From the IMG/VR virus record IMGVR_UViG_2872180393_000001: a stretch of DNA of 51,038 nt. The stretch is one strand, 5' to 3'. This stretch comes from a virus. Its lineage: Duplodnaviria > Heunggongvirae > Uroviricota > Caudoviricetes. Made by a program: the position numbers. Within the stretch, counting starts at the first letter, position 1, and every line of letters starts with the position of its first letter. Of this stretch, positions 48,001 through 51,000 are shown piece after piece.

Positions 48001-51000
48001 GGCAGCCGCAACGGCCCGTGATGATGCACAACGTTTTGCGGAGAATGCCAGACAGGATGCAGTTGCCACTGCAGAGGACAGAAAGGCCACTGCGGAAGAC
48101 GTGAAAAGCACGGGGAAAAACGCCGTCTTATCCGGTCAGCGTGCACAGGCAGCCGCAGGTTATGCCCGCGCAGCAGAACAGGCCAAAAATGACATTGATG
48201 CTGCGCTGACCGGCACTCTGAAAACGGCTAACCATCTGTCAGAAATCGCAGCAGCAGGCGAAAAGGCACAACAGAAGTCCCGGGATAATCTGGGGCTGAA
48301 AAGTGCGGCCACGATGGAAGCACAGAGCGACATTTACGACCGGACAAAAGGCCGTCTGGCGATACCCGGCGCATTCGGCTTTGGGTGTGCTTTTCTGCCT
48401 GAAGATGTTATCCGTTTTGACACTAAGAGTGATTTCCTGGCCTGGGTAAGGAATGCGCTGCCAGGTGAGTATTCCGTTGCTGGCCGCCTGGGCATCATAC
48501 CCGACACACGGTTTGAAGGGGTGCTCAGCATCCGGTGGACTGATGCACGCCCTGAGACAACAGAACCGCGGTACAGAGCCAAATCCCTTACTTTTTACGG
48601 CATTAACGGCCCCATTTATCACCCCCGCTACTGCTACTGGCCCATATCCAGACTGACTGACTGGGTGAAAATAAATATAACCACAGAAGATATTATTTAC
48701 AGAATCGTGGCGAGCTCTGTCCGCAACAGATGGGGAGACCCTGACATTGGCGGGCTGATTATTGCTGCGTACCAGGGAGAAGCTGACGGTGATAAAGTCA
48801 TCAGACTTGTCAGGGGGCAGTCATACAGAGGCTCACGACTGGGACCGGTGGGGATTTCAGTGCCCAGTACTCCCACCGGAACGTATATAGCATCCCCACA
48901 ATTTTTCATTACGGGATGTTCAGAGCATTCATTACCGGGGTCATATTGCGCCCTGAGGTGTACTGGCAATAGCGGACACTACCATTTGTTCTTTTTTTAA
49001 GCAGTCATCTGATGATATTTTTCCCTGAAGGCTGCCGGGGAGATATTCCCCAGACGAGAGTGACGACGCTGACGATTGTAGAAAATCTCAATGTATTCCC
49101 GTATTACTGAGATGGCTTCATCCCGGTTATTAAAACGATAGTGGCTCAGGCTCTCATTTTTCAGCGTTCCCCAGAAGCTTTCCATCGGAGCGTTGTCGTA
49201 ACAGTTACCTTTACGCGACATTGATGTTTTCAGACCAAACTGCTCCTGTATGACCCGGTAATCGTATGCGCAGTACTGTGAACCTCGATCAGAGTGGTGG
49301 ATTAGCCCGGCAGGTGGGCGCTGGCTCCTGAGCGCCATAAACAGGGCTTTACCTGTCAGCTCTTTTGTCATGCGCTCTCCCATGGCGTAGCCGACAATTT
49401 CGCACGTATAAACATCTTTGATGCCAGCGAGGTACAACCATCCCTCCTGTGTGGCAACATACGTCAGGTCCGCCACCCAGACCTGATTTGGTGCTGTAGG
49501 AGCGAACGTCTGGTTCAGCAGATTTGGCGCAACTGGCAGATTGTGGTTCGAGTTCGTAGTCGCTCTGAACTTGCGTTTCTGCTTACAGCGTAGCCTTAGC
49601 TCCTTACGAAGACGTGCCAGTCGGTCACGACCAACGATGATGCCATTCTCTGCCAGCTCCGTCTGGAGCCGCCGGGTTCCATATGTTTCGCGAGTGCGGA
49701 TATGTGCCACCTTAATCTCCAGTTTTAGCCGCTCATCACTTTGTTTTCTGTCTGAGGGTTCATGCTGTACCCAGTTGTAATAACCGCTCCTGGATACACC
49801 AAATACCTGACACATCGCTTCAATGGGAAATTGTTGTCGCCATTGTTCGATTAACGCGTATTTTTCAGCGACTCCTGTGCAAAATACGCTGTTGCTTTTT
49901 TTAATATATCTCGCTCAAGGCGAGCTTCATTTAACGCCTTACGCAGTTGCAGAATTTCAGATTCCAGTTCAGCCACCGTGCGGGAACCAGGAGTACCGAG
50001 CCCTTTTCTGGCGGCGGTAACCCATTGTCCTAAAGTGCCTTCAGGAAGGGATAATCGGGAAGCGCCTTCACTGATCGAAAGTTGATTTTCAAGAACCGTT
50101 CTGACAGCTTCGGCTTTGAACTCTTTAGAGTAACGTTGGGTTTTTCTGCTCATTATTAGCTCCTTCTGATGCCATTCTATTTCAGGAAGGAGTGTCCGTT
50201 AAACTCAGGCTACCTCACCCTGTCCGGGGTGCCGGATGCACATGTCTCTGGCGCAATGCCCGGGCTTTTTATTCGCACATCGTGAGGAATGCACCGTGGA
50301 AATTAAAAAAATCATTAATCCCCGTTATACCGAAAGTGGCGCAGTAGACTGTGACGTTTTTTTTGACGACAGGGACCAGGCAGTCCCCTACACAGCCACC
50401 GCTGATGATGTCGCTCCGACGGGTCAGCAAATCTGGCAGGAACTGCAAAGCGGCAAATGGGGTGAGATAGCCCCATTCACTGTGACACCAGAAATGCTGG
50501 AAGCGGCCAGAGAGGCCAGACGTCAGGAAATTGAAGCATGGCGCGCAGAACAGGAGGCGAAGCCGTTCACGTTTGAATGGAACGGTCGTATCTGGAATGC
50601 TGGTCCCGACTCACTGGGCCGCCTGTCCCCGGTAGTCATGCTGGCAAAATCTGTCACAGCACAAACACATATGGCGTGGAGCGATGCCGATAATCAGCAG
50701 GTGAAACTGTCGATGCCGGAACTGGAAGAACTGGCGGCAGCAATGGTGCAGGCGCAGGTCGATCGCAACGATGAGATTTATCGCCGTCAGCGTGAAATGA
50801 AAGAGGAGCTGAGCGGTCTGGATGATTTGGCTTCAATTCGGGCGTTTGACGTTGAGTAATGAATAAGCCGCAACTGGCGGAATCACAGAAGACCGCTTTG
50901 CTTACCGAAGCGGAGTCTGTCATCCGGCCGCGGGGGCGTGCGGTCAGGCTGAACAGGGAAACGGATGAATCCGGGGAGGCCCGGGGGCGGGCCTCTGTTT

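Follow-up and report, generated by a model that had tools for sequence, protein, structure and literature searches.

IS600 belongs to the IS3 family (IS3 group) of insertion sequences and was first described in Shigella sonnei. The side tail fibre gene of lambda offers a second point of reference: the stf gene of the laboratory strain lambda PaPa, studied by Hendrix and Duda in 1992, is reportedly frameshifted relative to that of Ur-lambda, and the phage is said to be viable. In STEC O121:H19 an IS600 copy lies in lacZ, and this insertion is reversible in vivo by way of the IS-excision enhancer IEE (PMC9397093). Tail-fibre chaperones with a DUF4376 domain are known from two Alteromonas phages, V22 and A5, where models show them as a trimer that caps the distal end of the fibre (PMC7289586, PMC10579305).

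The locus described here lies in a lambda-like prophage carried on a 51,038-nt stretch of DNA (the window), which is identical to part of the Shigella boydii chromosome CP026846.1. A copy of IS600 interrupts the prophage stf gene, and a gene for a DUF4376 protein follows. By analogy, the closest functional parallel is the IS600 insertion in lacZ of O121:H19, in that a simple insertion of the same element inactivates a gene and in silico excision restores the reading frame; unlike lacZ, the target here belongs to a prophage that is already defective. The closest biological parallel is the lambda stf frameshift. As in lambda PaPa, a side tail fibre gene with a PF08400 domain, following J and lom, is disabled while other tail genes remain, but here the lesion is an IS 20 codons from the end of the gene in a dead prophage rather than a frameshift in a viable phage, and both the distal domain of Stf and the chaperone come from families different from those of lambda. 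The gene order also resembles that of V22 gp26/gp27 and A5 gp8/gp9, where a fibre gene is followed by a DUF4376 gene of ∼190–240 aa. This likeness is one of gene order and domain content; the distal domain here belongs to a different family (phrog_2636), and the chaperone role is a predicted one. Our preferred reading, to which we assign a probability of roughly 0.85, is that IS600 transposed into codon 450 of stf in an already defective S. boydii prophage, with a null fibre allele and reduced chaperone expression as the likely results, and that this represents neutral decay and not a change in host range.

A preliminary description of the window had placed an IS600-like element at 48954–50217, and these limits proved exact to the base. 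The element (1264 bp, minus strand, the last of four copies in the window by repeat search) opens with TGAGGTGTACTGG and closes with CAGGCTACCTCA; its termini are TGAGGT at 48954 and ACCTCA at 50217, and its terminal inverted repeats are imperfect, with TG...CA ends and partial complementarity over ∼30 nt. By megablast it is 99.9% identical, over positions 1–1264, to PLSDB plasmid elements of E. coli and Shigella that carry the annotation ‘IS3-like element IS600 family transposase’. On the minus strand it contains orfA (49851–50153; 100 aa with an HTH domain, from the ORF list and three-frame translation) and orfB (48997–49815; 272 aa from its ATG, with a DDE/rve catalytic domain found by profile match), both of which match the IS3-family transposase model NF033516 (E 7e-100). 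A slippery run of seven A residues (49896–49902, minus strand, TTAAAAAAAG) is located at the orfA/orfB overlap and would, from its sequence, be predicted to direct a −1 frameshift from orfA into orfB. In the public annotation this copy is called as one OrfAB product of 385 aa, bearing HTH_Tnp_1 and rve domains. As judged from these features, the element is simply IS600 of the IS3 family, with nothing different in the element itself: it shares its length, ends, orfA/orfB arrangement, A7 run and 3-bp duplication with annotated IS600 copies, and it is the insertion site alone that sets this genome apart. The event is a textbook IS3-family insertion of a familiar element that abounds in Shigella and in EIEC or STEC.

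The other three IS600 copies, also full length by repeat search, are at 6328–7591 and 23759–25022 on the plus strand and at 39183–40446 on the minus strand. The four differ from one another by 1–5 nt, and each is flanked by its own perfect 3-bp target duplication (AGC, GGA, CAG and CCC). As each copy retains its own matching duplication, the four represent simple insertions, with no rearranging recombination between copies; an inversion by recombination between inverted IS600 copies is ruled out on the same grounds. At the stf site the CCC duplication, which had been noted before, is seen at 48951–48953 and 50218–50220, while the empty site of E. coli VL7S7 has a single CCC. Given how highly repeated IS600 is in this genome, it is conceivable that the element was misplaced at a repeat-induced join during assembly. 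We regard such an artefact as extremely unlikely: the perfectly duplicated bases occur only once in the empty site, copy 4 has a SNP of its own at IS position 667, and the source chromosome is a closed one of 4.86 Mb. Ordinary transposition of a transposition-competent IS600 into codon 450 of 470, with duplication of CCC, would account for the arrangement.

When the IS and one CCC are removed in silico, the flanks rejoin in frame, contrary to what would have refuted the earlier description, and a 470-aa stf ORF is restored. The insertion falls within codon 450, and the orphaned 3′ end of the gene (50221–50285, plus strand) comprises the last two bases of that codon, codons 451–470 and the stop codon TGA at 50283–50285. 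Residues L450 to S470 are thus severed from the rest of the protein, in line with the earlier estimate that stf is cut about 21 codons before its stop. Codons 451–470 encode SGVPDAHVSGAMPGLFIRTS, the same as in the intact allele of VL7S7. That strain also contains an exact copy of the 60-nt rejoined junction, and its RefSeq record has a 470-aa CDS named ‘prophage tail fiber N-terminal domain-containing protein’. Over the 1987 nt of the excised stf and its downstream gene there are three differences from VL7S7, two of which alter Stf (P340T and D352G). The uninterrupted site was found as a single BLAST piece in 10 of 5,426 complete E. coli genomes, nine at 99.3–99.8% identity and one at 93.7%. 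The restored 470-aa frame is more than merely open, since natural genomes carry the empty site. The restored C-terminus also reaches position 567 of 568 in the phrog_2636 profile and aligns to the ends of the homologues in phiP27, Rac-SA53, Av-05 and SerU-LTIIb. No BLAST match spanning the junction between stf and IS600 was present among the 5,426 complete E. coli genomes, and a scan of the GTDB species-representative genomes gave no match to the 37-nt left junction.

The gene itself is a lambda-type stf by its N-terminal domain and its location. Residues 1–131 match Pfam PF08400 (‘Prophage tail fibre N-terminal’) from the first position of the profile (E 2e-48), the N-terminal 93 residues match the Ur-lambda Stf N-terminal domain in PDB 9e7m (chain 9e7m_Ta), and the gene order is that of lambda, with J (41936–45433), an IS4 element, lom (46943–47542; Ail_Lom match, E 1e-124) and then stf. 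The lambda Stf N-terminus was the only match in the PDB sequence search. The product as a whole matches the PHROG tail-fibre family phrog_2636 (E 5.8e-215), and no NCBIfam model matches the fibre. A lambda-like distal domain was not found: residues 240–470 have no match in Pfam or NCBIfam, and their matches are instead to phrog_2636 and to fibre proteins of phiP27, Rac-SA53 and Av-05. Translation starts at 47606, giving the N-terminus MAVKISGVLKDG. The public gene call begins at an upstream ATG, at 47564, and yields the 478-aa form on record; this ATG sits in the lom terminator hairpin (47569–47590), and we consider that call to be wrong and 47606 to be the true start.

In its interrupted form, stf encodes a product of 464 aa (47606–49000, plus strand), made up of 450 native residues and 14 from the end of the IS, RCTGNSGHYHLFFF; exact look-up of this product returned no entry. 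The stop codon, TAA at 48998–49000, lies within the IS, where it is overlapped by the stop of orfB on the opposite strand. The earlier view that only the extreme C-terminus is removed therefore stands as far as the 20 lost residues are concerned, with the qualification that these are exchanged for 14 unrelated ones.

The lost segment is short, and its conservation is uneven. In an alignment of 30 homologues, with 42–100% identity to the query, no substitution is seen at L450, F466 or R468, and A449, G452, G464 and L465 hardly vary. A column-by-column count over 15 diverse Stf distal domains divides the segment into a conserved SG (451–452), a hypervariable loop (453–463) in which the frequency of the top residue is only 0.2–0.4, and an invariant GLFxR (464–468). 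The idea that these 20 residues are the best-conserved part of the domain is wrong: their mean top-residue frequency is 0.52, against 0.54 for the rest of the distal domain, and only SG and GLFxR are conserved. The best-conserved stretch is DRTxGRLAIPGAFGFG, at residues 245–260. AlphaFold2 models of the full-length monomer and of residues 236–470, which are of moderate overall confidence (mean pLDDT 69 and 71), place a beta-strand at 462–468 with a local pLDDT of ∼84–86. With the full-length model, Foldseek returned matches to the N-terminal domain only, and the model of the C-terminal domain had no significant match among PDB structures; the best, phage K gp144, was rejected (E 0.027, TM 0.25). 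The only BFVD matches of the distal domain are tail fibres, from phages Av-05 and Goslar, both of them sequence homologues.

It has been suggested that the severed end is the tip that contacts the receptor or the chaperone, and the two parts of the segment may bear differently on this. The hypervariable loop plausibly resembles a specificity loop, which would fit the idea of receptor contact, whereas the invariant GLFxR strand could plausibly have a structural or chaperone-docking role, to go by the models. That phrog_2636 distal domains end in this way, first with a hypervariable loop and then with an invariant GLFxR strand, may be of help in engineering this fibre family. As to the effect of the insertion, the loss of a mere 20 residues out of 470, 11 of which lie in a loop tolerant of sequence change, could be taken to mean that the last 20 residues are dispensable, so that the truncated, IS-tailed Stf would still function and the insertion would be silent for the fibre. 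That outcome seems unlikely to us, given the constancy of F466 and R468, and very nearly of G464 and L465, in homologues down to 42% identity, that the segment is predicted with good local confidence to form the final beta-strand, and that the homologues in unrelated phages all reach the same C-terminal end. A null stf allele is instead the most likely result: without the last invariant strand, and with a hydrophobic tail of 14 residues in its place, the distal domain would fail to fold or to trimerise.

The gene downstream of stf is intact (50296–50859, plus strand, 187 aa, GTG start), and its product is a predicted tail-fibre chaperone and partner of stf. The preliminary description had taken it for tfa and had the stf TGA overlapping its ribosome-binding site. 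The overlap is borne out, since a Shine–Dalgarno sequence, GAGGA (50284–50288), lies 7 nt before the GTG and has its first GA in common with the TGA of stf at 50283–50285; the identity of the gene has to be revised. The sole Pfam match of the protein is PF14301 (DUF4376; E 1.6e-16, 61 bits against a cut-off of 25). No match to PF02413, the lambda Tfa or Caudo_TAP family, was found in the Pfam search, and the gene is thus a ‘tfa’ by position only. Its residues 1–187 align to positions 4–190 of the 194 in the phrog_1141 profile; the protein has no match in the PDB sequence search and is matched by no model in NCBIfam.

Several observations agree on the GTG at 50296 as the start. It lies 10 nt after the restored stf stop, and a layout of stop, ribosome-binding site and start is kept in VL7S7, 401651 and SE11. 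In SE11 the DUF4376 CDS (187 aa) begins at the homologous codon, an ATG 9 nt past the fibre stop, and in 401651 the CDS (188 aa) begins at the homologous GTG, 7 nt past it. When divergent E. coli loci are aligned to the query, nucleotide homology sets in no more than a few bases from the GTG. The start used by PGAP in VL7S7, an ATG at 50236 giving 207 aa, was judged too long on the basis of this homology, the SE11 and 401651 starts and the phrog_1141 alignment. Pairs of fibre and DUF4376 genes also occur in five phages (phiP27, Rac-SA53, SerU-LTIIb, Actinobacillus phage vB_Apl-pPE4 and the myovirus Av-05), and this recurrence indicates that the fibre distal domain and the DUF4376 protein form a conserved two-gene module.

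The insertion changes the relation between the two genes as well as the fibre. Where its relatives keep the stop of the fibre gene in overlap with the ribosome-binding site and start of the next gene, IS600 has abolished the arrangement, and stf translation now ends at a distance of 1,267 bp from the DUF4376 start. From the layout, it is a reasonable inference that expression of the chaperone is lowered, in that late transcripts would cross the IS in the antisense direction and translational coupling to stf would be lost. One can go further and suppose that the main effect of the insertion is on the DUF4376 gene, through uncoupling of its translation from that of stf and polarity. This is compatible with our preferred reading, and we consider it possible but doubtful as the principal consequence. 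In its favour, the stop codon of stf overlaps or adjoins the signals for DUF4376 translation (ribosome-binding site and start) in every allele compared, with gaps of 7–10 nt (11 nt in Av-05), as against the 1,267 bp here. Furthermore, orfA and orfB point away from the DUF4376 gene, the only promoter-like match of the region is on their strand and is the IS's own, and several weak terminator-like hairpins occur on the plus strand inside the IS, though these are consensus matches from which function does not follow. On the other hand, the DUF4376 gene still has a ribosome-binding site (GAGGA) and a GTG start of its own, and late transcription of the lambda type is antiterminated by Q.

The fibre gene is not the only part of this prophage to have been damaged. 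Copy 2 of IS600 interrupts the small terminase subunit gene, and copy 3 does the same to the gene for gpL, a minor tail protein of 232 residues, near residue 186. Coding sequence for the large terminase is spread over two frames (25334–26857 and 26772–27317) that match consecutive parts of phrog_15; similarly, the portal gene is split into 27501–28883 and 28667–29092, matching consecutive parts of phrog_21, and the tape-measure gene into 35326–37395 and 37464–38294, matching consecutive parts of phrog_24. With at least six lesions in morphogenesis genes, stf included, the prophage is a defective remnant. Since at least five of these lie outside stf, in essential genes, truncation of the fibre would have no effect of its own on virion production or on the phenotype of the phage; the stf insertion may, however, predate the other lesions.

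The host and the surroundings of the prophage are those of Shigella: its J protein is WP_134795590.1, named for S. boydii, and the window stops one base short of an ipaH effector gene, whose product has LRR_TTSS and NEL domains. This proximity raises the question of whether the insertion was selected, for example because it silences the fibre or helps to lock an ipaH-carrying prophage in the chromosome. The density of elements might be read in the same way, since this one 51-kb prophage harbours an IS4 as well as four copies of IS600, of which three have hit morphogenesis genes. We nevertheless hold selection to be very improbable. The fibre is needed neither for excision nor for lysis, so that its truncation would not ground the prophage, and the terminase, portal, tape-measure and gpL lesions already abolish particle formation. 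The occupied site, moreover, was in no other genome searched (5,426 E. coli and the GTDB representatives), and IS expansion with random pseudogenisation is general in Shigella genomes. A more elaborate proposal, that the IS600 insertions together were selected because they domesticate the ipaH prophage, silencing virion and fibre and sparing the effector, or in a variant that the new C-terminus gives the fibre a new role, is less credible still. The insertion is most readily understood as neutral decay, driven by IS elements, of a lambda-like prophage with ipaH that was already grounded in S. boydii, and not as a shift of host range.

In practical terms, this is one more Shigella prophage of the lambdoid, ipaH-carrying kind in decay through IS600, and the consequences go little beyond annotation. 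The stf gene of this prophage is to be annotated as an IS-disrupted pseudogene that starts at 47606, and the gene after it as a predicted DUF4376 chaperone of 187 aa and not as lambda Tfa. The two junctions between stf and IS600 are marked by the k-mers ...ATTGCGCCC/TGAGGTGTAC... and ...CTACCTCA/CCCTGTCCGG..., in which the stroke denotes the boundary.

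Besides the copy in the side tail fibre gene, the window holds three further 1264-bp insertions of IS600. Copy 2 (23759–25022, duplication GGA) lies inside the gene for the small terminase subunit, and copy 3 (39183–40446, duplication CAG) lies inside that for the minor tail protein gpL, which it interrupts at about residue 186 of 232; both open reading frames were restored when the elements were excised in silico. Copy 1 (6328–7591, duplication AGC) is located in the early region, between two minus-strand reading frames, one encoding a Sak4-like annealing protein (5237–5917) and the other of unknown function (7730–8413), and no long ORF was found across its excised junction. 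J and lom are separated by an inserted IS4 element with approximate ends at 45452 and 46915 and a transposase of 442–448 aa, 98–99% identical to annotated IS4.

Three further morphogenesis genes are each split into two ORFs, as seen by profile comparison. The large terminase subunit gene (25334–27317) consists of two overlapping ORFs in different frames, giving consecutive matches to the terminase profile phrog_15 (positions 322–789 and 831–981), and it is probably a frameshift pseudogene. In the portal gene (27501–29092), the ORFs at 27501–28883 and 28667–29092 match consecutive parts of phrog_21 (positions 35–430 and 424–527), which suggests that this gene too has been split by a frameshift. 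The tape-measure gene (35326–38294) is likewise represented by two ORFs, 35326–37395 and 37464–38294, matching positions 287–745 and 773–1056 of phrog_24.

The public gene call for stf begins at ATG 47564, within the lom terminator hairpin (47569–47590). We rejected this start, which adds 14 spurious residues; the family profiles and lambda Stf begin at MAVKISG (47606). For the DUF4376 gene, the predicted fibre chaperone downstream, RefSeq annotates in E. coli VL7S7 (L001 6616–7239) a 207-aa product with an ATG start and a 50-nt overlap with stf. The equivalent form here, from ATG 50236, is disfavoured, and comparison of the sequences favours the 187-aa form from GTG 50296.

The E. coli VL7S7 locus carries an intact stf allele. 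The annotation there lists gpJ (L001 1043–4522) as a pseudogene carrying an internal stop; this related prophage is also decaying, via lesions different from those of the Shigella boydii prophage. Among draft genomes of Shigella sonnei, S. flexneri and E. coli, hundreds to thousands of Stf homologues (for example P0008, P0039 and P0055) are ‘partial’, ending at contig breaks whose positions differ, and these may be other IS or repeat breakpoints in the gene family. The C-terminus of P0055, ...SYSALS, lies one residue beyond the site of IS600 copy 4 in stf.

At the right end of the window, a 59-aa ORF (50859–51038) has no family match on record, and a strong terminator-like hairpin is present at 50975–50996. 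Immediately beyond the window lies an ipaH effector gene in convergent orientation (L002, the ipaH locus, 17104–18867), with LRR_TTSS and NEL domains.
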